From: Candidatus Komeilibacteria bacterium RIFOXYD1_FULL_37_29
GTDB taxonomy: Bacteria > Patescibacteriota > Patescibacteriia > UBA1558 > GWA2-36-10
Direction of reading: 5' to 3'
NCBI GenBank assembly: GCA_001818495.1
Contig: MHKS01000005.1
Coordinates: forward strand, 466,584 to 530,583
Length of the DNA: 64,000 nucleotides
The notes under the pieces were generated by a model. It saw nothing but the letters and a program-made list of their open reading frames with translations, searched no databases and was not told the origin of the DNA. The position numbers were made by a program, and so were the translations under genes. This document shows positions 3,801 to 48,339 of this stretch, one piece after another (within the stretch, counting starts at the first letter, position 1; the number at the start of each line of letters is the position of its first letter).

Positions 3801-5639
3801 GCTGGCGCTTTGCTTGAGGATTTCATTTCGCAAAGATCCTTGTATTCTTTGCATACCCATATAGACCGCTCCGGCGATGGCGTCAGAATAAGCTGCTCCG
3901 GCAATAGAACCAGAAACAAAGCCCTTACCTAGAGCTTGCATCAGACTGTCGGGAGGATTTTTGCCAAATAATTTGGCAACATAAGATTTTTCATAAGCGC
4001 TTTTTCCCTTATTATCAATTTCGGCAAATTTTTCTTGGGCTACTACATCACCTAAGATAACATTCATTTCTCTAGAAACCATCAACTCGGCCTGAATAGC
4101 CAGTTTATTAATGTCCGCTTCGCTTAAGTCGGATGCTCCTTTTAGTTGTTTTAAGGCTTCTTCTATTTGATAAGCAGCATATTCTTCCAGAGCGTTATTA
4201 GCAGTTAATGATTTGATTAACTCCTGTCTGTCTTTGATATCTTCAGCTTGATATTTCTGGTCACTATTTTTTTTAGTATTTTCGGTAAGTACCAACAAAC
4301 TACAGATATGATCAATTTTAGCTCTTTTTTCATCGCTATTTTCACCGCTAAAAATATTTTCTATTTTTTCGTCATCAAACCTTAATCTATAAGCCAAATT
4401 TTTTTGAGTACCCATGCTTTCCTGTCGCTGTTTTTCAAATTTGAGCAGGGCATCCATATCATTTTTTAGCTGTTCAAAAAGACCGTTGGTATCTAAACCA
4501 TCTTTAGACATTTTTTCAGCCTGAGTAGCCAATTTTTTGAGACTTTGGGCGTTTAGTTTTTCAAAACCACGACTAGTCAGATAATTAAAACCAGATACTG
4601 CTGCACCAGTCAGTCCTCCGCCAGCTAATTTTAGGGCCAAAGCTGGTGCGCTGACAAATTTGAGGCCGGTCATGACAGCTCGATTGGCTAAAGCATAAGA
4701 ACCTCCACCCCAGACGCCTTTTAAGAGCTGACTACCCTCGGCTTTTAATTTATCTGTTTTAGAAGTATTGTTTTCTTTGGAGGCTGAGGCCTGTCGTATC
4801 TGATCTTGCATAACCACTTCGGCTTGCTGACAGAAATTTTCAAAGTATCTGTTTTTAAATTCCTCAGCATAAAGAGTATCCACGCCCATTTCCATGAGCA
4901 TGGTTTCATCAGTAATCATTTGAGCAAATTTTTCTTTTAGTTTTTTAATATCTTTTAAGTCATCAAAACTTAAGTTAGTAAAAAACTCATTAAATTTTTG
5001 GTTAGCGATTTGCTCTTGCTTGGCTTCCAAAATTGGTACTACTTCTTCAGAAATTGTCTCTGCTATAGCTAATGTTGGTTTGGGTGTCTCTACAGAAATT
5101 GGTTCTGGTTTGGGTGCTACCATTTCAGCGGTGTGGAGAGGGTTCGATTCTGCTTGAATAATCGGCTCAGGAGTTTTTGGTTTCTCGGATTTTTCTAGGC
5201 GTTCGGCTCGATTACTTTTGATTTCTGGAATCTCAGAATAGATAACCCTACTCTTTTCTTCAGCTGGCGCTCCAGAAAAAACAATTTCGCTAGTTACTTT
5301 CTTGGCACTTCTACCCCATTGATTTTTGGTGTTCTCTATAGCTGTACTTGCTTCGATAGCAACGTTTTCAGCAGAGCTACTAATATCTCTTAAAACAGCT
5401 GACTCGGCTGGAGTGGCTGCTGTTTTTATCTCTGATGGTGTATCCTTAAAATCAGCCACTTCATCTTCAATCATCGTAGTTGCTTCGTAGGCGCTAGTTT
5501 CTATTGGATCTAGCCTAGTTTCTCTAGCATTAGCTTTTAAAAGCTCTTCCATTCTTTCAGCTGATACTTCACCATATCTAGGATCTACTGACTGGCCTCC
5601 CCTAGAGCTCCTTTTATCTCCTTTGTTTCTTCTGTCCAT
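810..5639 (-). CDS. Giant 1609-aa acidic, K/E-rich coiled-coil protein with internal tandem repeats of about 100 aa. Function unknown; it may be a surface or adhesion protein.
   Basis: One uninterrupted ORF. Repeats include LGINTFENGLKAEDL...SPEAQTAKQALQHL and LGINAFDGGLDETEL...SQAAQALLEQL. Gly-rich amphipathic stretches such as GGGSYALANRAVMTGLKFVSAPALALKLAGGGLTGAAVSGF are present. No enzymatic motif is seen. Confidence 0.6.
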   Translation of the reverse strand: MDRRNKGDKRSSRGGQSVDPRYGEVSAERMEELLKANARETRLDPIETSAYEATTMIEDEVADFKDTPSEIKTAATPAESAVLRDISSSAENVAIEASTAIENTKNQWGRSAKKVTSEIVFSGAPAEEKSRVIYSEIPEIKSNRAERLEKSEKPKTPEPIIQAESNPLHTAEMVAPKPEPISVETPKPTLAIAETISEEVVPILEAKQEQIANQKFNEFFTNLSFDDLKDIKKLKEKFAQMITDETMLMEMGVDTLYAEEFKNRYFENFCQQAEVVMQDQIRQASASKENNTSKTDKLKAEGSQLLKGVWGGGSYALANRAVMTGLKFVSAPALALKLAGGGLTGAAVSGFNYLTSRGFEKLNAQSLKKLATQAEKMSKDGLDTNGLFEQLKNDMDALLKFEKQRQESMGTQKNLAYRLRFDDEKIENIFSGENSDEKRAKIDHICSLLVLTENTKKNSDQKYQAEDIKDRQELIKSLTANNALEEYAAYQIEEALKQLKGASDLSEADINKLAIQAELMVSREMNVILGDVVAQEKFAEIDNKGKSAYEKSYVAKLFGKNPPDSLMQALGKGFVSGSIAGAAYSDAIAGAVYMGMQRIQGSLRNEILKQSASEVKTTKDILSDFNNFALTNENIDQARGLISEARARIKLPDIKEAERAKIELQIQNLQNKMISEAKNITAEKNETVDTKKMAKSIVSQREKEIAQAADIATKERARKSFRGLWKTFAQLSNKEKFRTLGRAGLEGTKGAIAGAIGGELVNASSTALSGEDYNINQGLDNIYNRVILNTADTITSKDNTEIPNGDTANIEEKAEVPVDTTKAPALENSDSTLSEQKGILEQMQEVLAKQKQAANSGFKYSLQDDFDIEEMAVDTKDFIGPQKQDSLFPDTLANDSSLVEQKTQINEIAQALQSGDTIKADTLIKDSTLDSTTVDSLKNLVAVNEKLGINTFENGLKAEDLDKIICELDNDPKSPEAQTAKQALQHLLKNGSLSLEQYQETIKQHLGQELQLGNVELAKNAIGNSGIDIKTINEAVGRVELEKNLGINAFDGGLDETELKIISDQIHGGEKSQAAQALLEQLHKDGLITDQQKFSIEHPTVVKAGFKEEAGDEKDVKYKLSLELGKDAAPKHLEQVFYRLGIDNIDLDKGEVTNVEAARILNIGANLRVLSEGHDIAGITGEEFQKYVNIEGNKITITDYEGFQENVIAKLADHATEIIMAENVANTGAVAYIDNIKNETWGDMLSAEGVKDENIKFDQEQIQKAEGRVFQDNLEKSNLGELATEVNFSDEESGSFTLENQTITVENNQVVKIGDNILEEPLYLQDKESGEKLIDKVSETKATEFLSLVEKNQEAMMARLNEQLDNQSLQKIEIPESLLPKPEYDISTELNTALNKLGFDDAESRKEWNDLKKESLSELLHGKTEETIEDKDDAIKMHTREHMREFLEQAVRNDEIKVDDGMTVERAMKDLMVKETREKLMYDIAVAEQKVKSVQELEQIGKKGSETLRDQLKEGAESQKETISKQSDMSAGKLYENFLDEKLPTEEQLDKMSVDDLEKIKGRLEIFNYILKQNPPDDVEVADLDKAKKVIGENEAILEKINKRLDNTK

Positions 5640-14084: not shown

Positions 14085-14588
14085 ATGAGAGTACCAATTA
14101 GAAAAGCTGGACAATATACTTATATTAAATCTGATCCTCTGATGACTGAGGCTAAATTGACTGAACTTAAAAACCAGCTAAAAAAATTAAAAGAAATAAT
14201 TCAGCCCGAGCTAGCCAAAGAAGTTAAAAGATTGGCTTTGATGGGTGATTTTTCAGAAAATGCCGCCTACCAAATAGCTAAGGGTCGTTTGCGTGGAGCT
14301 AATGAAAAAATAGATAAAATTACTAAACAAATCGCTGAGGCCAAAATTATTAATCCTAGTAAAACTATTCATGAAATTGAGATTGGTCATCTAGTGACTA
14401 TTATTTCTAGTAAGCAAACAAAAAAGTATCGATTACTAGGATCATCAGAAACAAACCCCGCTCAAGGAGCTATTTCCTACCAGTCTCCCTTGGGTTCGGC
14501 TTTGCTAAATAAAAAAGTAGGCGAAATTGCTCAAGTAAAAATCGACGGACAAGTGACTGAATACAAAATAATAGCGATAGAATATTGA
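14085..14588 (+). CDS. GreA-like transcription elongation factor, a divergent paralog. The true start may be the Met at 14142.
   Basis: GDFSENAAYQIAKGRLRGANEKIDKITKQIAEAKII fits the GreA coiled-coil signature. The C-terminal FKBP-like domain is present. Confidence 0.7.
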   Translation: MRVPIRKAGQYTYIKSDPLMTEAKLTELKNQLKKLKEIIQPELAKEVKRLALMGDFSENAAYQIAKGRLRGANEKIDKITKQIAEAKIINPSKTIHEIEIGHLVTIISSKQTKKYRLLGSSETNPAQGAISYQSPLGSALLNKKVGEIAQVKIDGQVTEYKIIAIEY

Positions 14589-15140: not shown

Positions 15141-15180
15141 AAAAATAGACCGAGCACTCTCGGTCTATTAAAATATTTTT
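15141..15180. terminator. Bidirectional terminator between the plus-strand GC-rich ORF and mnmA.
   Basis: atagaccgag-CACT-ctcggtctat forms a 10-bp stem. T-tracts follow on the minus strand and A-tracts flank it on the plus strand. Confidence 0.6.
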
Positions 15181-16232
15181 TATATTATGGTAGCACTAGC
15201 TACTAATTCGTTTTTAATATAAATAGCTAAGGTTTGTCCACTGGCCACACCCTGCTGGGCTTTTTTAAACTCAGCTTTGTCTGGATATAAAGTCAGGTTT
15301 TGGGCTGGCTGCCGATAGCGAATTTGCCCTTGAGCTTTTAAGGGTAACTGATATTTTTTACCCAGCCAATGGAGTTCTGAAATCTGCACACTTTTGTTGT
15401 ACAGTTTTTCATCATCAATGTGTCCGACTATTAATTGGTTATTTTTTATATCCTTGGCTACTACATACCAAGGTCCACTACCACCAATATCCAAGCCCTT
15501 CCTCTGACCAATGGTATAATACCAAACTCCTTCGTGTGTACCGAGCTTATGTCCTTTGGTATCAACTATATCCCCTACCTGTGGTTTTATTTTTTGTGAT
15601 AGAAAAGTTTTAAGATCTATTTTACCAATAAAACAAATGCCCTGACTGTCTTTTCGGTCAGCGTTGGGTAATTTGGCCTGTTTGGCCAAAAGACGGGCTT
15701 GGGTTTTTAACAAATGTCCCACTGGAAAAAGAGCTTTGGATAATTGAGTTTGATTTAAACCAGCTAAAAAATAAGACTGGTCTTTGCTGGGGTCTTTACC
15801 ACGGCAGAGCTGATAAAAATCTTTGGTCTTTTTAATTTGAGCGTAGTGTCCGGTAGCTATTTTATCAAAACCCATTTTAATAGCCTGGTCTAAAAATAAT
15901 TTAAATTTTATTTCGTTGTTACACAAAACATCGGGATTGGGTGTCAGCCCTGCTTGGTAGGCCTCGAAAATATAGCTGACTATTTTTTTATAATATTCAT
16001 TTTCAAAATCAAAGGTTTGGATGGGCACTTTAAGATGCGCTGCTACCCGATAGGCCATCAGCCGATCTTCTTTCCAAGGACACTCGCCTTTGATATTTAT
16101 TTTTTCAGAAAAATTCTTCATAAAAGCCGCTTCCACAGTATAACCAGCTTTTTTGAGTAAAAACAAAGTCACGGCAGAATCAACTCCGCCGGACAAGGCT
16201 ACTAAGACTCTTTCTTTAGCTTTTTTAGGCAT
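15180..16232 (-). CDS. mnmA: tRNA-specific 2-thiouridylase MnmA.
   Basis: The PP-loop VLVALSGGVDSAV is present. Overall the 350-aa protein reads as MnmA. Confidence 0.9.
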   Translation of the reverse strand: MPKKAKERVLVALSGGVDSAVTLFLLKKAGYTVEAAFMKNFSEKINIKGECPWKEDRLMAYRVAAHLKVPIQTFDFENEYYKKIVSYIFEAYQAGLTPNPDVLCNNEIKFKLFLDQAIKMGFDKIATGHYAQIKKTKDFYQLCRGKDPSKDQSYFLAGLNQTQLSKALFPVGHLLKTQARLLAKQAKLPNADRKDSQGICFIGKIDLKTFLSQKIKPQVGDIVDTKGHKLGTHEGVWYYTIGQRKGLDIGGSGPWYVVAKDIKNNQLIVGHIDDEKLYNKSVQISELHWLGKKYQLPLKAQGQIRYRQPAQNLTLYPDKAEFKKAQQGVASGQTLAIYIKNELVASATII

Positions 16233-16244: not shown

Positions 16245-17744
16245 TTATTTACCTATTTTAAAAATGCTCATTTTCTCTAGGGCTTTATCCGTTAACTTTA
16301 ACCTCATTTGACTTCGGGCATAAAGAGTAAAGAGTCTTTCGCCTTTTTTAACATGATCATTATATTCTTTATTGAGATAAATACCCGCCAATTTATCCTT
16401 TGGTGCGCCCAAAATTCTAGCAATAGTATTTATAGCTTTATTATCGGTAAAAGTAATACATCCTGACTTACTGGCATTGTAATATTTCTTGTGAGCCCCC
16501 AAAACAATATCATTGGGATCAATATCGAACTTACCACCTTGAGCTTTAATAATCTCCTGCATTTTCTTCCAGGCGGCTCCAGACTCCAAAGCTTTCCAAG
16601 CCATGGTAGCACCATGACCTTTTTTGGCCTTACCGCAAAGTTCTAATAGCTCACCAGCCAAATGAATAGACTTATTAGCTAGATCAGCTGGGTAGTTGTC
16701 TTTTTGTTGGAGTACTCTTAAAACATCTCTGGCTTCCAAGGCCGGACCAACACCCATACCAACAGGGTCTTCGGTCTGAACCATGATGACTTTCATTTTT
16801 ATATTAAATTTTTTGCCAATATACTTAAATTTTCTGGCCAGTTCTTTGGCAATTTTCATGTTAGGTATTTTGGTAGTTTTACCAACGGGCATATCAATAA
16901 TCAAATGAGTCACTCCGGTCGCTACTTTTTTGGCCATAATAGAAACTAACATTTTATCATAGGGCTCTAAAGATAATGGATAAGAGACCTGTAAAATCTT
17001 ATCGTCGGCTGGCGCTAGATTTAATCCACCACCCCAGACTAAACAGCCACCAGCTTTTTTGACTATTTTTTTTATTTCAGGGGCGCTAAAAGATACGGGT
17101 GCCAATACCTCCATGGTGTCAGCTGTTCCGGCTGGTGAAGTAATAGCCCGAGAAGATGTTTTGGGTATAATCAGTCCCAAACTAGCCAAGATGGGAATGA
17201 CCACCATGGTAGTGCGATTACCAGCTAAACCACCAACAGAATGTTTATCTACTACTATCTTATTGGAAAATTTTAACATCTCACCGGTTTCGGCCATAGC
17301 CTTGGTCATAAAATAAAGTTCTTGATCGCTATAATCATGAATAAAACTAGAAGCTACAAAGTAAGTTGTTTCGGTACGAGTCAATATACCATTGGCAATG
17401 TCGGAAAATATTTGATAAAAATCTTTATACTTTAATTTTTTACCGAGCAGACGATTTTTAATAGCTACAATAGATTGGGCTCTTTCTAAAAACTCAATCT
17501 CTACTATAGTATTGGGCAATATACTAGTTGCTTCCCAAATGTCCTTATAAAGCCCAATTTGGCCCCTCTGGACCCTACTTTGACTAGTATTGGCTTCAGC
17601 AATCACTGATTGGTCTTGCCAGCTTATTTTGATCTTATCCCCGGCTTTAATGCCGTACTGAATAGCTTCATCTACATTTAGCAAAGCAATGTTGGATTGC
17701 CCTGTTTTTATATCTAATTTTTTTATTTTCAAATAATATGGCAT
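16245..17744 (-). CDS. AMP/thymidine phosphorylase family enzyme of the archaeal-type AMP phosphorylase kind (about 500 aa, with an N-terminal extension).
   Basis: KHSVGGLAGNRTT fits the KHSTGG phosphate-binding motif. The pyrimidine-nucleoside phosphorylase core is recognisable. Length is 499 aa. Confidence 0.75.
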   Translation of the reverse strand: MPYYLKIKKLDIKTGQSNIALLNVDEAIQYGIKAGDKIKISWQDQSVIAEANTSQSRVQRGQIGLYKDIWEATSILPNTIVEIEFLERAQSIVAIKNRLLGKKLKYKDFYQIFSDIANGILTRTETTYFVASSFIHDYSDQELYFMTKAMAETGEMLKFSNKIVVDKHSVGGLAGNRTTMVVIPILASLGLIIPKTSSRAITSPAGTADTMEVLAPVSFSAPEIKKIVKKAGGCLVWGGGLNLAPADDKILQVSYPLSLEPYDKMLVSIMAKKVATGVTHLIIDMPVGKTTKIPNMKIAKELARKFKYIGKKFNIKMKVIMVQTEDPVGMGVGPALEARDVLRVLQQKDNYPADLANKSIHLAGELLELCGKAKKGHGATMAWKALESGAAWKKMQEIIKAQGGKFDIDPNDIVLGAHKKYYNASKSGCITFTDNKAINTIARILGAPKDKLAGIYLNKEYNDHVKKGERLFTLYARSQMRLKLTDKALEKMSIFKIGK

Positions 17745-17748
17745 AAGT

Positions 17749-19440
17749 TTAAAATTTTACAATTTCTCCTGGGTTTAATTTTTTTCCGTTATTTTTTGGC
17801 TGAACATTTTCAGATGATTGGGATTTTGTTTTCGCCATTGGCGGTTCTTTGGTGATTACTTTACGTCCTTTTAAAGCTTCGGCCAAAGAAGTAAATTCTT
17901 CTTCTCGACCATCATCAGATATTATTTTAATACTGGATGGTGGCGGTACTTTACCAGCTCTAGACAAATCTAAACATTCCCGACAATAGATTGGTTTGGT
18001 GGGATCTGGATCAAAATTTATCTTAGTTTTTTTACCACAAAGATCACAAACAGCGTCATGGCTAATACCTGTTTCTTTTTTCTTCCTATTTTTCTGGTCA
18101 GAATTATTTTTGCCAGTGAGAGTAGCCGTGGCTTTAGTTTTATTGGTCTCTTCCACACCACGATTTTCTGACCAACGAATAATTTTGTCCTCAATCACTT
18201 CTCGTGGCCGGGCGTATCTTTCTCTGGTCACAGAGATTATTTTATCTTTGGTGTCCAAATTTTCTTCAGCTAGTGACACCGGCGGCAGAGTCCGTGCAGA
18301 AAAAGCCTCGGAAGTAACTCCGTCAATCATTAATTTTATATAAATTTCAAATTTAGACAAATTAACCAGATCTTCTTGCGTAAAAGTTGGAAAAAATTCT
18401 TTTTCCAAAAACTCGGCATCAGCCGCCCCAACTCTAAAAACAACCAAGGTGCCGACATTACCAAAGACAGCGGCTTGGACATTTTCCTCTACCTGCTCAA
18501 TATACTGATGGGCAATGATTAGATTTAAACGGTATTTTCTGGCTTCAGATAGAATATTCGCAAAAGATTCTGTGGCAAAATTTTGAAATTCATCGACATA
18601 GAGATAAAAATCTTTTCTTTCTTCTTCTGGTGTATCCACTCTACTCATGGCGGCCAGTTGAATCTTGGTAATCATCATAGCCCCCAAAAGAGCCGAATTG
18701 TCTTCTCCGACGCGTCCTTTAGAAAGATTCAAGAGCAATATTTTCTGGCTATCCATGATGTCACGCATAGAAAAAGATGATCTAACCTGACCTAAGATAT
18801 TTCTAATTAGGGCTGAGGAAAGAAAACGACCGACTTTATTTTGAATCGGAGCAATGGCTTCAGCCTGGAATCTATCTGGATATTTACTATATTCTTCTAA
18901 CCAAAAAGCTTTGACCACTGGATCAGATAATTTTTCTACTACTTTTTTTCTAAAAGCTTTATCGGTCAACATACGCATAATGCCCAGTAAAGTAGAGCCA
19001 GGATACTCTAGTAGCGCTGAAATAGCATGATGGAGCACATATTCTAGTCTTGGTCCCCAAGAATCTGCCCAAATTTTTTGGAAGACTCCAATTAGACCAG
19101 AAACTACCAAATGTCTTTGTCCAGCATCGACTTGTTCCAAAACATTAAAACCAATTGGAAAATCCAAATCAGCCGGATTAAAATATATCACATCATTAAT
19201 GCGATGTTTTGGTACAAAATTTATGACCTTTTCCACTAGGTCACCATGCGGATCAACTACACAAACTCCTTTACCGTCTTGGATATCTTGAATAATCATA
19301 TTTTCCAAGACAGTAGATTTGCCCATACCAGTTTTACCAATAAAATACATGTGGCGACGGCGGTCGTCAGTTTTTATCCCAAACTTAACATTGGAATTTC
19401 TAAAGTTTGTTTCAGCAAAAATTGTAATGCGGTTATCCAT
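17749..19440 (-). CDS. VirB4/VirD4 (FtsK-HerA) superfamily P-loop ATPase. This is the stand-alone ATPase half of a split module and carries a C-terminal Zn-ribbon tail.
   Basis: Walker A is HMYFIGKTGMGKST, followed by VVDPHGDL. Walker B is FYLYVDEFQ. The C-terminus has CDLCGKK...CREC. It is a paralog of the C-terminal half of 32753-35206. Confidence 0.75.
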   Translation of the reverse strand: MDNRITIFAETNFRNSNVKFGIKTDDRRRHMYFIGKTGMGKSTVLENMIIQDIQDGKGVCVVDPHGDLVEKVINFVPKHRINDVIYFNPADLDFPIGFNVLEQVDAGQRHLVVSGLIGVFQKIWADSWGPRLEYVLHHAISALLEYPGSTLLGIMRMLTDKAFRKKVVEKLSDPVVKAFWLEEYSKYPDRFQAEAIAPIQNKVGRFLSSALIRNILGQVRSSFSMRDIMDSQKILLLNLSKGRVGEDNSALLGAMMITKIQLAAMSRVDTPEEERKDFYLYVDEFQNFATESFANILSEARKYRLNLIIAHQYIEQVEENVQAAVFGNVGTLVVFRVGAADAEFLEKEFFPTFTQEDLVNLSKFEIYIKLMIDGVTSEAFSARTLPPVSLAEENLDTKDKIISVTRERYARPREVIEDKIIRWSENRGVEETNKTKATATLTGKNNSDQKNRKKKETGISHDAVCDLCGKKTKINFDPDPTKPIYCRECLDLSRAGKVPPPSSIKIISDDGREEEFTSLAEALKGRKVITKEPPMAKTKSQSSENVQPKNNGKKLNPGEIVKF

Positions 19441-19442
19441 AT

Positions 19443-20933
19443 TTAAGCAGTTGGTAAATTAGGTGGGGCTTGGTTTTTATTTTTTGGCTTGGGCATGGTA
19501 TGAGCACCTTTTTTGGCGAAGCGTTCTTCAAAATGTTTGTTGGCCAAATCTACACTAAAACTAGGAGCCAGTAATTGCTTTCTAAGGTCCTCGGTGATTT
19601 GGCCCTTGTCTAAATCCATGCCTCTGGAAACAGGTAAAGAAAATGGTGGCTCAGATTTTTTACTTTCAGTCCGTTGTAGTAATGGTGCTTTAACAAATTT
19701 ACTTGGGAAGTGCCAAACAGTCGCCAATTCTTCTGTGTTTAAAATATAATACCCATGCCCTCTAGTGCCACTACGAGCCTTATAACCACGCATTAAGTTT
19801 ATTCTGCGCATAGCTACTCTGCTCTTAATGAAGAAATAATCAATCTTAGTCTTAGTTTTTTTATCTGGTTTAAAGGAATTTAAATCCATAGTGTTAAATT
19901 GTTTGATAGAACCAAAAACAGAAGAAATAACTCGAGAAGCGGAATACTTATCATTGGGCGAGATATAAATCAAACGCATTTTACACTCAAAACCGGTTTT
20001 GCCAGTTTTTCTCTCAATGGCCTCAATGGCTCCTTTCTCGCCAGGGGTTAAATGAAGCATCATAGACGGCAAAACATCTTTTTTACCGCTAGAAGTTCCC
20101 CCCTTTAAATCTTGTGGCCAAATCATCGGTTCACCGGTGGATAGAAAAAATAAACTAGTCATTGGGTCAATCAGTCTATTAAGCCATCCCTTTTTATCGG
20201 AAAACTTTTTACCAGCTATTTTATAAACCTCTCTTAAACCCCTTTTAGGCCAGTCAAAACCAGTTGGTCTTACTATAATTTGAATCCACACCTGTTCCCC
20301 AACTTGAATCTTACTCATGGTTTCGAGTAGTGATGATATGGGGTCTTTAAATTCTCCGGAAACATTGTCTTCAAATTCTGTATAAGTCCGAATAGGATAA
20401 ACATCTTTTTTATCCAAGATAACTTCGGTACCCCAAATATTATGAGTATCATTGGGATAATCATCCGGCACAGCCCCCACATAATCCTCTACTTCGGTAA
20501 TTTCAGCATCAGGATATTGTGAATAAATAGAACTTTCTATTAAATCACGATATTGGCTAGGGGTACGAATTAAAAATTGGACATAACCATCAATGCTGAC
20601 AATTTCAAAAGAGAAGCTAAGCTGAAAACGACCCTCTACATATATTTCTCTTAAATTAAGCGGATCATGCGCTCCAGAAATAGTAGAGAAAAGCTGTTCT
20701 ACGGCCTTAGGTGTTTGTTCGGTGTCTTTGGGGACATCAATGGCTAAAATCACGAATTTATTGGTATTAAACCATTTAATACTCTGCTTCATATGCCAAA
20801 TAGCAAAAAAACCCCGGACAATGATATAAAAATATATAATCCAGCCACCGTTTTTAAAAAAATACCAAGCTATGGCTCCGAAGCCTTGATTCATAGCCGC
20901 GTACAATGATGATAAATCTAAAGTTATTTCCAT
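19443..20933 (-). CDS. Membrane-anchored protein homologous to the N-terminal domain of the fused ATPase at 32753-35206. It is the N-terminal half of the split module.
   Basis: One N-terminal TM helix. FSFEIVSIDGYVQFLIRTPSQYRDLIESSIYSQYP aligns with FSAEIVSDGGFINFYIATPTNYRDFLIQQLQAVYP in the fused paralog. The gap to the ATPase gene is 2 nt. Confidence 0.6.
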   Translation of the reverse strand: MEITLDLSSLYAAMNQGFGAIAWYFFKNGGWIIYFYIIVRGFFAIWHMKQSIKWFNTNKFVILAIDVPKDTEQTPKAVEQLFSTISGAHDPLNLREIYVEGRFQLSFSFEIVSIDGYVQFLIRTPSQYRDLIESSIYSQYPDAEITEVEDYVGAVPDDYPNDTHNIWGTEVILDKKDVYPIRTYTEFEDNVSGEFKDPISSLLETMSKIQVGEQVWIQIIVRPTGFDWPKRGLREVYKIAGKKFSDKKGWLNRLIDPMTSLFFLSTGEPMIWPQDLKGGTSSGKKDVLPSMMLHLTPGEKGAIEAIERKTGKTGFECKMRLIYISPNDKYSASRVISSVFGSIKQFNTMDLNSFKPDKKTKTKIDYFFIKSRVAMRRINLMRGYKARSGTRGHGYYILNTEELATVWHFPSKFVKAPLLQRTESKKSEPPFSLPVSRGMDLDKGQITEDLRKQLLAPSFSVDLANKHFEERFAKKGAHTMPKPKNKNQAPPNLPTA

Positions 20934-20944: not shown

Positions 20945-20953
20945 ATTATACCA
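20945..20953 (-). promoter_or_regulatory. Extended -10 promoter TGgTATAAT placed for a near-leaderless transcript of the split VirB4-like operon.
   Basis: The minus strand reads GAGAAAATGGTATAATATAATTACATT-ATG. The -10 element ends 11 nt before the ATG. Confidence 0.4.
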
Positions 20954-20981
20954 TTTTCTCAGTTTTTTTAAAGCTTATCTA

Positions 20982-21049: not shown

Positions 21050-22153
21050 TTATTCAGTTTTTAATGAATATCTGCCTTTTTCGTCCTTAGTAAAACGGTC
21101 TTTATTCATCAAAGCTAGAGTAATGGTAGTTTCTTTAATTAAACGTTTTTCTAATACGGCCTTGATGATTTCTTTCTTGGTTAACGGTTTGTCACTTTCT
21201 TTCAAAATATCAGCAATCACATCAGCCACTACGCCTGGCTTATAACCCCATTCTTTTAGAGCATAAATACCGCGACCAACCAAAACATATTTTTCATCCA
21301 AGATTAATTCGTTGTGAATAGTAGCTGGATAAGCCTGACGATGATCAAAAGCCATTTCATTTATAGTCTTGGCAATTTCCGTAAAATGCATCGGTTTGTC
21401 ATTTTTCTTGAGTACCAAATAGATCTTGTCATTCATACGACGAGGTGTAATATTTGCCCACTCAATCAATCCCCACTCATCATAAGGATTAGATTTTAAT
21501 TTTTTAGTAACTGTAATGAAGTTTACTACTACTTTATCAGTCAAATCATCATTTTGTTTGTAAAAATCAGTTTCTTTGATTTTATTCATTAATTCTTCCA
21601 AAATAAGCGCTTGACCATGGTTATCAATTAATTCACAAATATTACCAACGGTTTCATGAAATAAATCTACTTTAGCTTCCGGCGTTTTCCAAAATCCACT
21701 ATGCTGTTTTGATTCTTTAACAAAGTAAAAACGATGATTTAATAGTTGGTTTAAAATAAATCTAATAGCTGCTTTATTTTCTTCGGAAGTTCCGGGGATA
21801 GATAAAAGCTCATTGGTCAAATTGTCTTCAGACATCAAACCACCATGCTCGGAAAGAGTAGTGTTGGCGATCTCTTCAATCTCTTTTAAGATGGTCTGAT
21901 TGAAATTTTTGTTGATCTTCTTAAGAGAAGTATTTTCAATTTGTCTAATTCTTTCTCTGGTGACATTGTATTTTTTACCAATATCTTCTAGGGTTTTTTT
22001 CTCAGAACCAGACAAACCGTGACGCATTTTTATAATTTCTTGCTCACGTTCTGATAAAGCCGTCAAAATATTAACCAAAGTTTGATGGGGATCAAAATCA
22101 GAAAGTTTTGACAAATGTTTTGATGTAATGACTTGGTCTAAAATTCCAGACAT
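21050..22153 (-). CDS. Protein with an N-terminal sigma-70 region-4 HTH and an uncharacterised C-terminal domain of about 270 aa.
   Basis: LSEREQEIIKMRHGL...KTLEDIGKKYNVTRERIRQIENTSLKKI matches sigma-70 region 4.2. I recognise no sigma region 2 or 3. Confidence 0.55.
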   Translation of the reverse strand: MSGILDQVITSKHLSKLSDFDPHQTLVNILTALSEREQEIIKMRHGLSGSEKKTLEDIGKKYNVTRERIRQIENTSLKKINKNFNQTILKEIEEIANTTLSEHGGLMSEDNLTNELLSIPGTSEENKAAIRFILNQLLNHRFYFVKESKQHSGFWKTPEAKVDLFHETVGNICELIDNHGQALILEELMNKIKETDFYKQNDDLTDKVVVNFITVTKKLKSNPYDEWGLIEWANITPRRMNDKIYLVLKKNDKPMHFTEIAKTINEMAFDHRQAYPATIHNELILDEKYVLVGRGIYALKEWGYKPGVVADVIADILKESDKPLTKKEIIKAVLEKRLIKETTITLALMNKDRFTKDEKGRYSLKTE

Positions 22154-29512: not shown

Positions 29513-29887
29513 TTATCCAACAACAGTTTGTGCGTATAATTCACTCAATACAAATCTAGATACAGCATAAGCTACTAGTATGATAACCAAACCAACTACG
29601 CCAGCACCAATAAGCTTTTTAGCTTCATCAACCTTATCACTACTGCCATAAGAAGTCATCCATTTGAAACCACCAAAAAGAATAATCAAGGTAGTGAGGA
29701 TGCCTAAGAAACCCAAGATGATATTAACTACACCACCAATGGTGTCTCGAAGCGATCTTGATCCTAAGGCAATATCAGTGTTGGAGAAATCATTAAATCC
29801 CCAGTCATCTAAAGTAGTTTGAGCGTTAGCTGCTGCTGGAGCTAACAACAAAAGAAAAGTTAGTATTTTCTTCATAGAATTATGCAT
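29513..29887 (-). CDS. VirB2/TrbC-like pilin candidate with a Sec signal peptide and two hydrophobic helices. It is a paralog of the upstream gene.
   Basis: MKKILTFLLLLAPAAANA-QT is followed by two TM helices separated by a short polar loop. It is roughly 65% identical to the upstream protein. Confidence 0.5.
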   Translation of the reverse strand: MHNSMKKILTFLLLLAPAAANAQTTLDDWGFNDFSNTDIALGSRSLRDTIGGVVNIILGFLGILTTLIILFGGFKWMTSYGSSDKVDEAKKLIGAGVVGLVIILVAYAVSRFVLSELYAQTVVG

Positions 29888-29932: not shown

Positions 29933-30289
29933 CTAAAATGTTTCGCTGTAAAGCTCACTAAGCACAAATCTGGAAATAGCATAAGCCGTTAAAACAATGA
30001 TTAAACCAATTGCTCCAGCTATGACCACGCCTTTACCTTTTTCACTTTTTTCGGCATTACCACCAGATGTCATCATATTAAATCCTCCCCACAAAATAGC
30101 GACTGTTGTTAATATGCCTAAAAAACCCAAAATGATATTAACTACACCACCAATGGTGTCTCGAAGCGATCTTGATCCTAAGGCTACTTCGGCATCTGTA
30201 AAATCATTATACCCCCAATCGTCTAAGGCGGTCTGAGCATTAGCCATTATTGGTGCTAAAAGTAGTGCAAAGGCTAATATCTTTTTCAT
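29933..30289 (-). CDS. VirB2/TrbC-like pilin candidate with a signal peptide and two hydrophobic helices.
   Basis: MKKILAFALLLAPIMANA-QT is followed by DDWGYNDF, then VVNIILGFLGILTTVAILWGGF, a loop, then VVIAGAIGLIIVLTAYAISRFVL. The ORF-track start at 30325 lies upstream of the predicted TSS, so the Met at 30289 is used instead. Confidence 0.5.
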   Translation of the reverse strand: MKKILAFALLLAPIMANAQTALDDWGYNDFTDAEVALGSRSLRDTIGGVVNIILGFLGILTTVAILWGGFNMMTSGGNAEKSEKGKGVVIAGAIGLIIVLTAYAISRFVLSELYSETF

Positions 30290-30316
30290 AAATAACTTAT
30301 TTTTATTAATACCTAT

Positions 30317-30345
30317 ATTATACACTAATTTTGGATATTTGTAAA
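30317..30345 (-). promoter_or_regulatory. Strong sigma70-type promoter for the pilin-like gene pair: TTTACA, a 17-nt spacer, then TATAAT.
   Basis: The minus strand reads TTTACA-AATATCCAAAATTAGTG-TATAAT. Confidence 0.6.
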
Positions 30346-32066: not shown

Positions 32067-32726
32067 TCAAAGACTAAAATCAAGCTCGTCAGTAGAAATC
32101 TTTTTATGATTATTAATTTTTATAATATTTTCCACGGCTGCCCAACCGCTTTCAGAACCCTTTGGTACCAATATCACTACCTCATCCCCTTCTTCACCCT
32201 TAAAATAAGTGACTGAGGCCATGAGAAGTTTGTATATTTTATCTCCAGCTAAAACTACAAATTCATTGGTATTTCTGTCTTTAATCAAGTGTCCGACTAA
32301 GCGAGCTCTTTCTACTGGTGCTATTTGTTTGAAAATAAATGAACCGTCTAAACTGATAGTTAATTTTAAAATATCCCCTTCGACTAATTTTGATTTTGAA
32401 GCATAATTGGCTGGAACACTATACTGTTTGCCATCTGGACCAATCATTATTTGCCCGTTAAAAACACCTTCTACTACCAAGCCCTCATCACCATCTATTT
32501 GCTTGCCCACTTGAGCGGCTTTTAAACTATAGTTAGCGGCGTCTGAAGAAGTTCGGCCGGTCAATTCTCCTAAAACTTGTTTGGTTTTGGTGAGCTCTAA
32601 TTCTAAATTATATAATAAAGCTTCTAAATCTTTTATTTTTTTTGCTTTTGACATTTTGTTTTTGTTTACGAGCCTTGGTAGCTCTTTTTCCCCTAATAAT
32701 TTACCACAAAAATTGGCTCTTGGCAA
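32067..32726 (-). CDS. Hypothetical protein between dnaX and the fused VirB4-like gene. The likely start is Met25 at about 32654.
   Basis: An ORF with no motif that I recognise. Confidence 0.45.
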   Translation of the reverse strand: MPRANFCGKLLGEKELPRLVNKNKMSKAKKIKDLEALLYNLELELTKTKQVLGELTGRTSSDAANYSLKAAQVGKQIDGDEGLVVEGVFNGQIMIGPDGKQYSVPANYASKSKLVEGDILKLTISLDGSFIFKQIAPVERARLVGHLIKDRNTNEFVVLAGDKIYKLLMASVTYFKGEEGDEVVILVPKGSESGWAAVENIIKINNHKKISTDELDFSL

Positions 32727-32752: not shown

Positions 32753-35206
32753 CTAAACCATAGCAATACGACTATTTATCTCGCTTTCCACTACCCTTTT
32801 ATCGCGACCATATCTTAAGCGAGATAATTCCTTTATACTTCTAGCTAATTCATAATTACCCTTTTCCGGTAATATTGGATTAAAATTAAAAGCTGGCGGA
32901 TTTTGATTATCAATTAATAACCTAATATAGCAGGTGTATTTGGGCATGTTGATAAGATCATATTCAGTCACTACCGGTGCCATTTGTTTGGCTATGACTT
33001 CAGCATCGTCTACTCCGATTCGATAAGATACCAATGTACCAACATTGCCAAAGACAGAATCTTTGACGCTAGTATTATTATTTTTAGTTAATTGAGCCAA
33101 AAATTGATGAGCTAAAATCAAATTTAATTTATACTTTCTAGCCTCTGATAATATCACTGAGATGCTTTCGGTAATATAATTTTGAAACTCATCAATATAC
33201 AAATAAAAGTCTGCCCTTTCTTCTTCTGGTATATCCACCCGACTCAAAGCGGCAAACAATATTTTTCCGATCATAATCATGCCCAAAAGACTACTATTCA
33301 TTTCACCAATGCGACCTTTGGATAAATTGATAATAATAATTTTATTTTCGTCCATAGCTTTTCGAAAATTAAAAGCTGACTTCGCCTGGGAAATAATCGG
33401 CCGAATAGTATCGTTAGATATAAAAGGCGTTAATTTACTAGTAATGTAGGGCACCATATTGGCCAAGGCCGCTTCACCACCGGCTTTTTGAGCTTCTTTT
33501 TCCCAAAAATCTTTCACTAATTGATTTTTGGCTTTGGCTAATTTCTTTTTTCTATATTCAGCATCAGATAAAACTTTGGGAATTTCTAATAGTGTAGCCG
33601 AATTTTCTTTATCATCCATCAAAAGTAACATAGTATTTCTCATGTATTGTTCAAAAATCGGGCCGCCCGTTGCTTTGAGATCATACAACTTATCAAAAAT
33701 AGCAATCATCTCGTTGATTACAAAAGTTTTTTGTTCTTCTGTTTCAAACTCTAGCATATTGATGCCAATAGGACGTTCGGTGTCTGATGGATCAAAAAAT
33801 ATTACATCTTCCGCTCTGGCTTTGGGCACATGAGACAAAATAGTTTCTGCCAAATCTCCATGTGGATCCAAAACGCAAACACCCTTGCCATTAGCTATAT
33901 CTTGAATAGCCAAACTCTCTAAAAAGACCGATTTACCAGTACCGGTTTGCCCGATGGTATACATATGCCGACGACGATCAGCATCTTTTATTCTGACTAG
34001 GGTTTCTTTGCCACGATAAATGCTTTTACCTAACACTACGCCTTCTCTTGGCATATCCGCCGGTGGAGCTGCTTTGGCTGCCTCTAACCAAGCGATATTG
34101 GGTGTTTCACTGGTGGGCAGGGGTAAATGAATAATACTAGTCATTTCTTCTGAATTCAAAATCATACTACGTTTAGGCAAAAAATGACGATAAATAAAAT
34201 GTTCAATGTAAGAATCATTTTTTTTGGGTATCTGGGCTCTAAAACTATTGCCAAACTCATAGATATTGAATTGACTGTAGCTATTTAAAATGTCATTCAA
34301 AATCATACCAGAACGCTCCGAGCTGGGTGTAGAGACAACTACTCTGATATTGACCTCGAGAGCGGATTTGGAAGTTTTTTCTTCCATAGCTTTGGCTCTT
34401 TCCTGCTCCATAGCAGACATAAGCGGTTTTTCCTGAGGTTTGTTTAGTGGTTTTTCTTTTTCTTTGGAAGCAACAAAAGTACCAAAAAATTTTAAAACTT
34501 TACTGAGATTACCCCAAAATCCACCACCGCCAAGTTTTTTAACAGCCTCATTGTAATGAATACCAGTATACATATACTTGGCTATTTTTTTGCCGCGCGC
34601 GTGCCACCGCGCCGGAGCAGAGCGAAAAACATATTGGACAGCCGCCCCCTCTCCGTCTTTTAATTTACTCAAAGAATTGGTAATGGCTTCTAGTGGATCA
34701 TTTTCAAAATGACGATAAGTTTTTATTGGTAAGCTATAATCATTGGTAAAATAAAGAATACCCGCCTTGATATGACCCTGGGGCTGAAAAATATTATAAT
34801 CAACCGCTAGTTCAAAATATATTTTAGGATAAACCGCTTGCAGTTGTTGGATTAAAAAATCTCTATAATTAGTCGGCGTGGCTATATAAAAATTTATAAA
34901 TCCGCCATCCGAAACAATTTCAGCGGAAAAAACATCCGTCCGTCGGCTAAACATTTTTTTCTGAATTCTTAGTCCACTTAGAGCGGCAAACAAATTTTCT
35001 ACTTGCCCCAATTGTGTCTGGACATAATCTTTACCATACTCCTCTTTTTTCTGTTTGGTATATTTTGGTATTTTGACTAAAAGTATCTCCTGTTGAAGAC
35101 TTTTATTGGATTTATTGTTAAAATAATTTAATAAAAAATAAACAAAAATGCCCAAGAAAATAATTCCTATCAATGAAACTATAGCTATAGTGATATATTC
35201 ATTCAT
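32753..35206 (-). CDS. Fused VirB4/VirD4-superfamily ATPase of 817 aa. An N-terminal TM helix and a domain of about 370 aa are followed by a P-loop ATPase.
   Basis: Walker A is HMYTIGQTGTGKSV, followed by VLDPHGDL. Walker B is FYLYIDEFQ. The N-terminal half is homologous to 19443-20933 and the C-terminal half to 17749-19440. Confidence 0.75.
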   Translation of the reverse strand: MNEYITIAIVSLIGIIFLGIFVYFLLNYFNNKSNKSLQQEILLVKIPKYTKQKKEEYGKDYVQTQLGQVENLFAALSGLRIQKKMFSRRTDVFSAEIVSDGGFINFYIATPTNYRDFLIQQLQAVYPKIYFELAVDYNIFQPQGHIKAGILYFTNDYSLPIKTYRHFENDPLEAITNSLSKLKDGEGAAVQYVFRSAPARWHARGKKIAKYMYTGIHYNEAVKKLGGGGFWGNLSKVLKFFGTFVASKEKEKPLNKPQEKPLMSAMEQERAKAMEEKTSKSALEVNIRVVVSTPSSERSGMILNDILNSYSQFNIYEFGNSFRAQIPKKNDSYIEHFIYRHFLPKRSMILNSEEMTSIIHLPLPTSETPNIAWLEAAKAAPPADMPREGVVLGKSIYRGKETLVRIKDADRRRHMYTIGQTGTGKSVFLESLAIQDIANGKGVCVLDPHGDLAETILSHVPKARAEDVIFFDPSDTERPIGINMLEFETEEQKTFVINEMIAIFDKLYDLKATGGPIFEQYMRNTMLLLMDDKENSATLLEIPKVLSDAEYRKKKLAKAKNQLVKDFWEKEAQKAGGEAALANMVPYITSKLTPFISNDTIRPIISQAKSAFNFRKAMDENKIIIINLSKGRIGEMNSSLLGMIMIGKILFAALSRVDIPEEERADFYLYIDEFQNYITESISVILSEARKYKLNLILAHQFLAQLTKNNNTSVKDSVFGNVGTLVSYRIGVDDAEVIAKQMAPVVTEYDLINMPKYTCYIRLLIDNQNPPAFNFNPILPEKGNYELARSIKELSRLRYGRDKRVVESEINSRIAMV

Positions 35207-35209: not shown

Positions 35210-35692
35210 TTATTTTGGTTGATTTATTTTTAATATTTTTTCTGTTTTTATTTTAGCTTCTTGCTCTAAATAATGCTTGTTTACTCTGGGTATAAGGCGC
35301 AACCATTCTAATATCAGTTTAGTAATTTCTTTTACTTTGATCTTGGCCTGCAACAACAAATTTGTAATTTTAACCGACACGTCTTCTCCTTTTGTTTTAA
35401 AAACTTTTTGAGTACCAGCATCTAAAGATAAATAAACATCCTCCATACCTTCTGCTAAGACATTTTCTATTTTTTGATGAATAACAGACGCTATATTAGC
35501 CTGTGCATTTGAAGAAGTCTCACCATCATCCAAATTTACAGTTGGCGAAATATTATCATTTTCCGGTTGTTCTTTACTTTGAGAAAATTTTTCTAATTTA
35601 GCGCCGTCTAAAGACTTTTCCACTGATTGTTCGGCGAATCGGCCTGATTCTTGACTAATCGACGGTTGTTCTATTCTTTTTTCTTTTGACAT
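35210..35692 (-). CDS. Hypothetical acidic 160-aa protein upstream of the fused ATPase.
   Basis: The gap to the ATPase gene is 3 nt. No motif is recognised. Confidence 0.4.
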   Translation of the reverse strand: MSKEKRIEQPSISQESGRFAEQSVEKSLDGAKLEKFSQSKEQPENDNISPTVNLDDGETSSNAQANIASVIHQKIENVLAEGMEDVYLSLDAGTQKVFKTKGEDVSVKITNLLLQAKIKVKEITKLILEWLRLIPRVNKHYLEQEAKIKTEKILKINQPK

Positions 35693-35699: not shown

Positions 35700-36173
35700 T
35701 TATACCAAATTTTGGCTTTTTAGGTAAGAATCTAGACTCTGATACAGTTTATCAGCCAAATTAATGGCCGGTAAAACATATCTGTGCCCGCCAGATAGTA
35801 TATAAATATTTTTATTTCTTTTGCGAACCGCTTTAATATCAGATAATTTTATAAAACCGACCAATCTAAAATCATTTTTATAAATTAATTTAAGATGAAC
35901 TAACCTTTTATTAGTCAGTAAATAAAAATTGTTGCGATCTAGCATGGCTCTAGCCAAGAAAAATATCAAAAATATTACCCAAATAACCCACAAAATAAGC
36001 CCCTGATAGCCCATTTTCCAGACTGGAAAAAGTATAAAAAATGTCATTAAAAAAAGCAGGATAATAAAAATTACCCTGGTCGAACTAGTCTTTGACTCAA
36101 AGACCATTTTTAAGTCTTCACTAACGGTCAAAAATTTGCTAAAATTATTCATGTTATGAATAAAAAAACTCAA
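35700..36173 (-). CDS. Membrane protein with a bacterial PH-like domain, similar to YdbS/YdbT.
   Basis: Two TM helices are followed by the LTNKRLV motif typical of bPH_2 domains. Confidence 0.5.
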   Translation of the reverse strand: MSFFIHNMNNFSKFLTVSEDLKMVFESKTSSTRVIFIILLFLMTFFILFPVWKMGYQGLILWVIWVIFLIFFLARAMLDRNNFYLLTNKRLVHLKLIYKNDFRLVGFIKLSDIKAVRKRNKNIYILSGGHRYVLPAINLADKLYQSLDSYLKSQNLV

Positions 36174-42064: not shown

Positions 42065-42080
42065 AGCTTGTCAGGATATA

Positions 42081-46759: not shown

Positions 46760-46816
46760 GATATAAATATCATATCATTTGCCCTATATTTAGTAAATAT
46801 ATTAAAATTACTACTA

Positions 46817-46845
46817 TTGACAAAATAAATAAAATCTGTTATATA
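46817..46845 (+). promoter_or_regulatory. Sigma70 promoter for rnpB: TTGACA, a 17-nt spacer, then TATATA.
   Basis: ttgaca lies at 46817-46822 and tatata at 46840-46845. The predicted TSS falls about 7-10 nt downstream, at the start of the P1 helix. Confidence 0.6.
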
Positions 46846-46855
46846 TTAGCTACAA

Positions 46856-47227
46856 GGTCTAAATAGACTGAGATGATTGCTACTTTTAGCGTAAGGCTAA
46901 TCGTAGAGGAAAGTCCGAACACCACAAAAAAAGGTAGTTGGTAACACCAACCGCTCCAAACGCAAGTTTGGCAGTAGGACAAGTGCAACAGAGAATATTC
47001 CTTCCCGCTTTGCGGGATAAGGGTGAAAATGTCGAATAATCAGTCGACACGTTTATATGGTGACATATAGAAAGAGGTAAACTTCTATCTGGTGTAAGGC
47101 CAAATAGAGCGGCGAAGGCCGCTGGGTAGGCTGCTTGAGGTTGTAAGCAATTACAATCCTAGATAGATGATCATCGTTTCAGTTTTACTGAAATTACAGA
47201 ATTCGGCTTATGAGGTCTATTTAGACC
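46856..47227 (+). ncRNA. rnpB: RNase P RNA, bacterial type A.
   Basis: The P1 helix pairs ggtctaaatagac with gtctatttagacc. The P4 motif GAGGAAAGTCCGAAC is present. AAGGGTGAAA, CTGGGTAGGCTGCTTGAGG, CCTAGATAGATGA and ACAGAATTCGGCTTAT closely match the E. coli M1 RNA 3' half. A T-tract follows. Confidence 0.93.
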
Positions 47228-47234
47228 TTTTTTA

Positions 47235-48332: not shown

Positions 48333-48339
48333 AGGAAAT

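Follow-up and report, generated by a model that had tools for sequence, protein, structure and literature searches.

A 64,000-nucleotide stretch of DNA from a Candidatus Komeilibacteria bacterium (contig MHKS01000005.1, positions 466,584 to 530,583), which we refer to as the window, carries the genes of two ancient paralogs, both type IV coupling proteins (T4CPs) of the monoderm type within the VirD4/TraG/TrwB family. One is a single 817-aa protein (32753-35206) with a transmembrane (TM) helix, then a DUF8128 domain, then a T4CP ATPase. In the other, the same parts are divided between two adjacent genes, one for a stand-alone 496-aa DUF8128 (PF26449) protein that forms the N-terminal module (19443-20933) and one for a soluble 563-aa VirD4/TrwB-like ATPase that forms the C-terminal module (17749-19440). 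All three open reading frames (ORFs) lie on the minus strand, as do all features described below unless stated otherwise, and their coordinates and lengths agree exactly with those in an earlier note on this DNA, which had proposed the split and fused arrangement from the sequence alone. On balance, we favor the reading that both paralogs are membrane-docked hexameric coupling or translocation motors serving a chromosomal apparatus resembling a type IV secretion system (T4SS).

The split proteins correspond to the two halves of the fused paralog

BLASTP aligns residues 6-420 of the 563-aa ATPase with residues 390-810 of the fused protein (45% identity, E=4e-120) and residues 37-447 of the 496-aa protein with residues 15-402 (25% identity, E=1e-25). 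Both alignments are far beyond chance, and they bear out the half-by-half correspondence that had been read from local blocks such as FSFEIVS.../FSAEIVS.... The motifs quoted in the earlier note, GKTGMGKST, VVDPHGDL and LYVDEFQ, are all found in the 563-aa ATPase, where the first is the Walker A motif (19312-19338) and the last the Walker B motif (18583-18603). The ATPase domain of the fused protein (residues 390-817, 32756-34039) has GQTGTGKSV (33926-33952) and LYIDEFQ (33182-33202) as its Walker A and B motifs.

The fused protein begins with a single strong TM helix (residues 5-26, 35129-35194; Kyte-Doolittle 2.85) that reaches at least 2.6 in 41/41 aligned orthologs and is followed by basic residues, then the DUF8128 domain (residues 38-385, 34052-35095). 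Given the positive-inside rule and the cytoplasmic ATPase, the remainder of the protein should lie in the cytoplasm. The N-terminal TM anchor expected of a T4CP is a strong helix in the fused form; the split ATPase has no hydrophobic segment, and its 496-aa partner has a weak one, an aromatic-rich hydrophobic helix (residues 30-48, 20790-20846) that an AlphaFold2 (AF2) model and Kyte-Doolittle analysis identify as a probable membrane anchor. Its maximum over a 19-residue window is 1.36, against a median of 1.87 among orthologs, 38 of 51 of which reach at least 1.6. The earlier description of the protein as TM-anchored is therefore firm for the fused form and borderline for this 496-aa copy.

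After this helix, the 496-aa protein consists of the DUF8128 alpha/beta core (residues 58-412, 19698-20762), which aligns to residues 38-385 of the fused protein, and a low-confidence tail (19446-19697; predicted local distance difference test, pLDDT, <60) in which two motifs of the form PPxxLP are conserved, EPPFSLP at residues 428-434 and APPNLP at residues 489-494. P430, L433, P434, P490, N492, L493 and P494 are invariant or nearly so in 51 orthologs. The fused protein has a single equivalent motif, APPADMP, directly before its ATPase domain.

The split ATPase in turn carries a C-terminal tail (residues 427-563, 17752-18162) that the fused protein lacks. This tail, put at about 150 aa in the earlier note, measures 137 aa, and as proposed there it contains a zinc ribbon, of the treble-clef CxxC-x17-CxxC type (17974-18048; CDLCGKKTKINFDPDPTKPIYCREC, residues 465-489), recognized by Pfam zf_Tbcl_2 (E=2.6e-11) and TIGR04272 (E=4e-11). 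A tail, 97-263 aa long, is present in all 59 full-length split-type ATPases of the survey, and the zinc ribbon in 43 of these; among fused paralogs the tail is essentially nil (0-14 aa) and the ribbon is found in none.

The motor is a VirD4-type coupling ATPase

Both ATPases are P-loop NTPases of the FtsK/HerA superfamily with intact Walker A and B motifs, and sequence models place the motor on the VirD4, or coupling-protein, side. Against the Pfam families TrwB_AAD_bind, T4SS-DNA_transf and TraG-D_C (cut-offs 20.5, 20.1 and 22 bits), the split copy scores 50.8, 29.7 and 26.6 bits and the fused copy 36.0, 34.2 and 24.0 bits. These matches take in the region of the all-alpha domain, and an all-helical insertion is predicted at residues 490-605 of the AF2 model. 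Both copies also pass the cut-off for DUF87, a family generic across the superfamily, and both fall below the Pfam cut-offs for FtsK_SpoIIIE and HerA_C. The VirB4-specific Pfam models CagE_TrbE_VirB and AAA_10 give no match at E<0.01, and the NCBIfam model VirB4_plasma reaches 22.7 bits against a cut-off of 590. The NCBIfam CedD model yields a weak local match to the P-loop region only (29.5 and 22.5 bits, cut-off 600), helicase_HerA scores 15.8 bits (cut-off 970), and no NurA-like neighbor was found. These sequence models match the T4CP families rather than FtsK or HerA, and of the earlier note's broader designation, a VirB4/VirD4-superfamily ATPase, the VirD4 half stands and the VirB4 half does not. 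The NCBIfam equivalog models for TraD, CD1115-type VirD4 and others produce sub-threshold local matches far below their cut-offs, so the proteins fall into no named ortholog group; NCBI labels such proteins 'type IV secretion system DNA-binding domain-containing protein'.

When PDB sequences were searched with a profile built from 41 fused orthologs, only TrwB (E=2e-5) and DotL (E=2e-3) were retrieved. Structural comparison of the ATPase gives the C-terminal domain of VirB4 (4ag5) 29.6, DptH-C 28.0, TrwB 27.3 (363 residues aligned, 18% identity), HerA 25.2, DotL 24.3, Cag-beta 21.7 and FtsK 16.4, a ranking that puts the motor in the VirB4/VirD4 branch. We also considered an FtsK/SpoIIIE identity and rejected it on the motor model and on the best fold match, FtsK having the lowest figure in this comparison.

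The predicted fold of DUF8128 resembles the N-terminal domain of VirB4

The N-terminal module had been called uncharacterized and possibly VirB3/VirB4-N-like. It is already a Pfam family, but the second part of that description is in keeping with its predicted fold. Membership in DUF8128 was read from the precomputed annotation of near-identical homologs, one 100% identical to the fused copy and one 91% identical to the 496-aa protein; the latter itself has no match in the Pfam and NCBIfam model sets that we searched, which lack PF26449. An exhaustive search with the DUF8128 profile returned 5,021 cluster representatives (50% identity) at E<=1e-3 and 1,528 at E<=1e-30. In the open-access literature we found no mention of the domain.

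The AF2 model of the 496-aa protein (51 orthologs, pLDDT 77) predicts a long N-terminal helix at residues 18-57, an alpha/beta core at 58-412 and disorder at 260-287 and after 413. By Foldseek, its closest structural match is TrwK, the VirB4 of R388, with low TM-scores of about 0.3 for this predicted model. The match presumably falls on the N-terminal domain (NTD) of VirB4, because DUF8128 has no P-loop and precedes the ATPase, and on the strength of the model DUF8128 looks like a VirB4-NTD-like fold, with the VirB4 order of an N-terminal domain of this fold followed by a RecA-like C-terminal domain. The link is a structural one, since no similarity was detected at the sequence level: comparison of the profile of the 496-aa family with a plasmid VirB4 gave nothing (probability 1.4%). 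Among PDB sequences the same profile returned only non-significant matches, to bS6 and picornaviral polymerase (E>=0.2), which we discarded. In R388, the VirB4 NTDs are membrane-embedded, join the two protomers within a dimer and are in contact with VirB3 and VirB8 (PMC12857230).

Fused and split forms are both maintained across Patescibacteria

Only 2 nt lie between the stop codon of one split gene and the start codon of the next (TAA-AT-ATG), so that the pair abuts tightly and is probably translationally coupled. Such close spacing could also have arisen by a sequencing or assembly frameshift, or by decay of a once-fused gene into a pseudogene, and we considered both with a survey of one genome per GTDB species. 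A split-type protein is present in at least 580 of these genomes; the best 80 loci were classified with hidden Markov models (HMMs) built from our own alignments, and 73 were informative for the ATPase. In none of the 80 species-representative loci is a split-type DUF8128 protein fused to an ATPase in an intact single ORF. A separate ATPase gene (526-689 aa) directly follows the DUF8128 gene in 58 of the 73, usually after a few nt, with junctions that vary from -98 to +587 nt in longest-ORF calls. A two-gene layout in at least 58 independent genomes, with variable junctions, argues against a frameshift, and the full length, strong conservation (82-41% identity over 50 aligned orthologs, with many invariant residues) and intact catalytic motifs of the two halves argue against decay. 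The split clade, with its own tail and zinc ribbon, moreover stands apart from the fused clade in the tree described below. The survey rules out the frameshift and pseudogene readings, to which we assign virtually no probability, and together with the conserved two-gene arrangement it establishes that the gene fission or fusion event suspected in the earlier note is real.

Both forms are kept side by side in relatives, a co-occurrence that the earlier note had proposed to survey; the paralogs lie close together in the window and at surveyed loci L003, L016, L068 and L083. They form distinct families. The split HMM gives split-type N-domains 420-590 bits, the fused HMM gives them only about 100-150, and for fused N-domains the relation is reversed. 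In a single neighbor-joining tree of the ATPase domains, built without bootstrap support, split-type and fused-type sequences are reciprocally monophyletic sister clades, both within one Patescibacteria clade, with plasmid T4CPs outside it. Fused orthologs share at least 52% identity among the 120 best matches, whose names include Komeili-, Falkow-, Nomura- and Parcubacteria. The taxon-named best matches of all three proteins are almost all metagenome-assembled genomes (MAGs) of Patescibacteria (the Candidate Phyla Radiation, CPR), among them Komeili-, Parcu-, Nomura-, Falkow-, Kerfeld- and Uhrbacteria. Many species-representative MAGs with a locus of the Patescibacteria type (among L013-L086) are labelled 'uncultured Gammaproteobacteria bacterium' (binchicken/SRP co-assemblies), and one is labelled Acutalibacteraceae; these labels are probably wrong.

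Gene order around the split locus is shared by two relatives, a JGI contig of 847 kb (L001) and a Nomurabacteria MAG (L003), in which a sigma-r4/HARE-HTH gene is followed by genes for DUF8128 (495-503 aa), a zinc-finger ATPase (581-582 aa) and a thymidine/AMP phosphorylase. The fused copy is likewise near the split locus in both; in the Nomurabacteria MAG it is 813 aa long and lies 8 kb upstream, adjoining a 209-aa gene and dnaX.

Relatives in conjugative elements and the probable order of events

A tblastn search of PLSDB with the ATPase core matched 369 plasmids, including 115 from Streptomyces, 67 from Bacillus and 33 from Staphylococcus, together with haloarchaeal and Sulfolobus plasmids. 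The linear Embleya plasmid NZ_CP108778 encodes an 812-aa protein, annotated 'type IV secretory system conjugative DNA transfer family protein', that can be aligned to the fused profile along its full length, N-domain included (665 columns, hhalign E=7.5e-49). Its flanks are a VirB4-type ATPase (P-loop_TraG, AAA_10) on one side and a Replic_Relax relaxase on the other, and the vicinity also contains a PrgI/VirB3-like gene and an NlpC/P60 hydrolase. A Bacillus subtilis plasmid of 27 kb (NZ_CP154917) encodes an 885-aa protein whose N-domain matches DUF8128 (hhalign probability 96.7%, E=4e-10) and whose gene precedes those for a Replic_Relax relaxase, for conjugal transfer functions and for a VirB4 matching AAA_10 (387 bits). 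Natrinema pNATPE02 (L090, 4521-8709) has an independent split form, in which the gene for a 1003-aa T4CP-type ATPase ('TraM recognition domain') starts inside the one for a 395-aa DUF8128-like protein (hhalign probability 91.8%, E=7.5e-7), with an overlap of 11 nt. From these three cases we conclude that DUF8128 joined to a VirD4-type motor is the coupling protein of a monoderm and archaeal class of conjugative elements.

Two further plasmid proteins deserve mention. Just upstream of the Natrinema pair lies a second protein, of 1102 aa, with weak, sub-threshold similarity to TraG-D_C. A Sulfitobacter mediterraneus plasmid (NZ_CP081110, L087, 5980-7167) encodes a 395-aa ATPase-only protein that is nearer to the split CPR ATPase than any plasmid T4CP is (41% identity, E=1e-97); it is flanked by transposase and recombinase genes and may be a horizontally transferred fragment.

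The fused form is probably ancestral, because the nearest outgroups of the CPR clade are fused and are T4CPs of conjugative gene clusters; by parsimony, a duplication in Patescibacteria was then followed by fission of one copy. The break falls in the linker between the domains. In the fused protein the PPxxxP motif directly precedes the first strand of the ATPase, and the split N-terminal protein keeps this motif, adds about 60 residues and ends in a nearly invariant PPxNLP.

Genomic setting of the two loci

The window is low-GC DNA (~36%) with nearly all genes on the minus strand, among them secA, alaS, greA, mnmA, secDF, ddl, uppS, dnaX, lepA, murJ, mreBC, a penicillin-binding protein gene, a proS-like gene, frr, holB, recJ, ackA and a glycosyltransferase/DUF4012 cluster. 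It is ordinary chromosome, with both loci amid housekeeping genes. The genetic association with a relaxase or a VirB4-based T4SS that is usual for T4CPs is absent within these 64 kb: the whole window contains no relaxase, VirB4, VirB6 or VirB8. The earlier note, which had seen no relaxase, VirB6 or VirB8 nearby and had concluded that this is not a canonical conjugation island, was right on both counts. It had passed over two tandem genes for VirB2-like T4SS pilins of 124 and 130 aa (29513-29887 and 29933-30325), located between the split and fused loci and flanked by dnaX and uppS, with no other T4SS gene nearby. Their scores against Pfam T4SS_pilin (PF18895) are 33.2 and 39.4 bits (cut-off 26.6), the second also matches weakly a pilin-like family of mycoplasma integrative and conjugative elements (NF045849), and in relative L001 a pilin pair holds the identical position.

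Directly upstream of the split locus is a gene for a 367-aa protein with sigma-70 region 4 and a HARE-HTH domain resembling the delta subunit of RNA polymerase (21050-22153; Pfam, NCBIfam). This is the tightest-linked neighbor, since 60 of 71 informative loci have it directly upstream of the split-type DUF8128 gene, and its product may regulate the system or be its DNA-binding partner. Between the two genes, a sigma-70-like promoter match by consensus only, TTTAAA-16-TATAAT with TG (20945-20972), ends 12 nt upstream of the DUF8128 start codon, and a hairpin with a T-run lies just upstream of it. Downstream, the split ATPase gene is followed after 4 nt by a gene for AMP/thymidine phosphorylase (16245-17744; TIGR03327, 552.9 bits against a cut-off of 535), an archaeal-type nucleotide-salvage enzyme, and this after 12 nt by mnmA (15180-16232), beyond which there is a terminator-like hairpin at 15144-15169. 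The promoter-like site, the gaps of 2, 4 and 12 nt and the hairpin suggest a single operon, so that DUF8128, ATPase, AMP phosphorylase and mnmA probably form one transcription unit in this genome.

The fused gene lies between conserved small genes. Upstream, after 3 nt, is one for a 160-aa protein (35210-35692) that is 41% identical (E=1e-28) to its counterpart at locus L006, where the fused protein is just 53% identical; the position is also filled in L005. Between the fused gene and dnaX is one for a 219-aa protein (32067-32726), 57% identical (E=2e-66) to its counterpart in L006, with the position filled in L003 and L005 as well. A 157-aa protein with two hydrophobic segments (35700-36173) completes the flank. 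None of the 157-, 160- and 219-aa proteins has a Pfam or NCBIfam family match, and no VirB3-like signature was found in them.

Elsewhere in the window, a 1609-aa ORF (810-5639) has no match in Pfam or NCBIfam, and two paralogs each of GreA (14085-14588 on the plus strand, and 49361-49855) and of MreB (48340-49353 and 52998-54050) are present in what is a reduced genome.

A model for the two motors and its alternatives

The model that we favor, with the moderate confidence expressed at the outset, starts from a layout common to both paralogs, in which an N-terminal membrane helix, weak in this split copy, is followed by DUF8128 and a TrwB-like P-loop motor with an all-alpha insertion. A duplication in the ancestor of a large Patescibacteria clade would have preceded fission of one copy in the inter-domain linker, after which the split copy would have gained its C-terminal tail, usually with the treble-clef zinc ribbon. 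By analogy with the VirB4 NTD of R388, DUF8128 may sit at the cytoplasmic face of the membrane, where it would dock or oligomerize the motor on partners in the inner membrane; for the split copy this would mean acting in trans on an otherwise soluble ATPase. Both motors would act as ATP-driven hexameric rings, which we presume because Walker A and B are intact in each, and would deliver DNA or protein as macromolecular substrate to, or receive it from, the relaxase-less chromosomal T4SS-like apparatus of Patescibacteria. The zinc-ribbon tail might serve as a receptor for substrates or adaptors, as C-terminal extensions do in other T4CPs. We count the VirB2-like pilin genes within the window in favor of this model.

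Several observations weigh against it. The membrane helix of the present 496-aa copy is weak, the tree lacks bootstrap support, and the likeness of DUF8128 to the VirB4 NTD depends on a predicted model with low TM-scores and finds no echo in profile comparison. No relaxase, VirB4, VirB6 or VirB8 gene accompanies the two loci within the window, and both are surrounded by housekeeping genes. At 15 of the 73 informative loci the split DUF8128 gene lacks an ATPase gene within 10 kb, so the two halves are not obligatorily linked; 12 of these 15 have instead a family 4 glycosyltransferase (GT4), a DUF4012 protein and a DUF11-type surface protein (L039, L041, L047, L056, L062, L065-L067, L069, L075, L078 and L085). 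(The window has a DUF4012/GT4 cluster of its own, at 39608-48437, unlinked to the split DUF8128 gene.) Quinonero-Coronel et al. (2025, PMC12102498) report 5,713 VirD4-type T4CP homologues in 2,918 Patescibacteria genomes, of which only 148 lie near virB4. They report further that the T4CP homologue of Southlakia epibionticum is non-essential while the T4SS genes are essential, and themselves raise exaptation as something they could not exclude.

Exaptation is in fact the main rival to a T4SS-coupled motor, although we judge it clearly the less probable, perhaps one case in a few. Here the paralogs would have become a membrane translocase independent of any T4SS, a pump for DNA or nucleoprotein engaged in DNA uptake for nucleotide salvage or in FtsK-like handling of the chromosome. 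Their synteny with chromosomal housekeeping genes fits such a role, with dnaX beside the fused gene and secDF and the sigma-r4/HARE-HTH gene beside the split one, as does a conservation that is very high for CPR proteins, the fused form keeping its 52% or more among the 120 best matches. The DNA-binding-type protein directly upstream in 60 of 71 relatives, the distance of most Patescibacteria T4CP homologues from virB4, the dispensability of the Southlakia homologue beside an essential T4SS (PMC12102498) and the lack of any recognizable coupling protein or relaxase in the essential S. epibionticum T4SS cluster (Wang et al., 2023, PMC10633639) can be read in the same way. The AMP phosphorylase 4 nt downstream of the split ATPase would suit DNA uptake for nucleotide salvage, but this adjacency is kept in just 17 of 54 relatives, which weakens that version of the idea. 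Against exaptation more generally, the closest non-CPR relatives are coupling proteins in conjugative T4SS clusters, a VirB4-NTD-like docking domain and nearby VirB2-like pilins fit a T4SS role better, and even in ordinary systems the T4CP gene commonly lies apart from virB4 (PMC12102498).

A more speculative proposal, to which we give little credence, is a VirB4- or Ced-like motor in which the fused and split paralogs would pair through DUF8128 into a heteromeric double ring. Each copy has the VirB4 layout of NTD plus ATPase, and the paralogs are conserved together and close in the window and the four loci named above. VirB4 protomers do pair via their NTDs in a hexamer of dimers (PMC12857230), and CedB and CedD, for which a double ring has been proposed, provide an analogy that the weak NCBIfam CedD matches might be taken to support. 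The sequence models, however, are VirD4-type, with the VirB4 and CedD models far below their cut-offs; the plasmid relatives that share this architecture hold a separate, genuine VirB4, and most Patescibacteria likewise encode a VirB4 of their own. An extension of this proposal, similarly improbable in our estimation, would make DUF8128 T4CPs a surviving intermediate between VirB4 and VirD4, a VirD4-type motor that has kept the docking domain of VirB4, with the double ring of fused and split forms powering a relaxase-independent, Ced-like chromosomal exchange of DNA or protein with the host cell and the zinc-ribbon tail as substrate receptor. The coupling motor serving a chromosomal T4SS-like apparatus remains the reading that we prefer.

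DUF8128 and the T4CP family were already catalogued, and the abundance of T4CP homologues in Patescibacteria, about two orphan homologues per genome, has been published; the part of that work cited here (PMC12102498) does not discuss their domain structure, mentioning neither the N-terminal domain nor the fused/split pair. As far as we have found, three points are new: the VirB4-NTD-like fold predicted for DUF8128, the stable pair of fused and split paralogs with its zinc-ribbon tail specific to the split clade, and the connection with coupling proteins at work in conjugative elements of Actinomycetota, Bacillus and haloarchaea. Patescibacteria depend on hosts, and before theirs no T4SS had been shown to be essential to the organism that carries it (PMC12857230, PMC10633639). 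The present findings yield testable hypotheses for what energizes or feeds that system, bear on the divergence of VirB4 and VirD4, and provide a structural hypothesis for a Pfam domain of unknown function.

Comparison with known systems

The likeness to T4CPs (VirD4/TrwB/TraG/TraD) comprises the P-loop motor, its all-alpha insertion, the matches to TrwB_AAD_bind, T4SS-DNA_transf and TraG-D_C, and the TrwB-like fold. The closest subgroup is that of monoderm conjugative elements with Replic_Relax relaxases, represented by the Embleya and B. subtilis plasmids. Unlike those plasmid T4CPs, the window genes are chromosomal, have neither relaxase nor VirB4 within 64 kb and form a paralog pair of which one member is divided between two genes and bears a zinc-ribbon tail. 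In canonical T4CPs, TrwB among them, the membrane domain is short and made of two helices, in place of a DUF8128 module of ~350 aa. The pLS20 coupling protein, compared by description as a possible described relative, was set aside, being reported with two N-terminal TM helices and no such domain noted. T4CPs are described as having gained an integral-membrane N-terminal domain (Guglielmini et al., 2013, PMC3548315).

With VirB4 (TrwK of R388, and the C-terminal domain of the Thermoanaerobacter pseudethanolicus protein) the window proteins share an N-domain of ~400 aa joined to a RecA-like ATPase of ~400 aa, and the ATPase is structurally as near to the VirB4 C-terminal domain as to TrwB. They differ in matching no VirB4-specific model, and the related plasmids encode a distinct VirB4 alongside. 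CedB and CedD are co-occurring chromosomal paralogs needed for relaxase-free DNA import (bioRxiv 10.1101/2024.09.27.615246). The window pair resembles them in being two chromosomal paralogs that combine a TM segment with a VirB4-NTD-like domain and an ATPase, again with no relaxase; there, however, the motors belong to the HerA/VirB4 clade, whereas here they are VirD4-type, and no CedA/VirB6-like gene is nearby.

Precedents for the split itself come from two sources. In the mating-pair formation systems of the FATA class of pGO1 type, TrsD is a stand-alone VirB4-NTD-like protein encoded beside the VirB4 TrsE, and its homologues are abundant in Patescibacteria (PMC12102498). On a comparison by description, TrsD accompanies a VirB4, whereas the stand-alone module of the window accompanies a VirD4-type ATPase. 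Natrinema pNATPE02 offers the same combination as the window, a DUF8128-like protein and a T4CP-type ATPase encoded as a split pair, in a plasmid-borne, archaeal setting and with a much longer ATPase.

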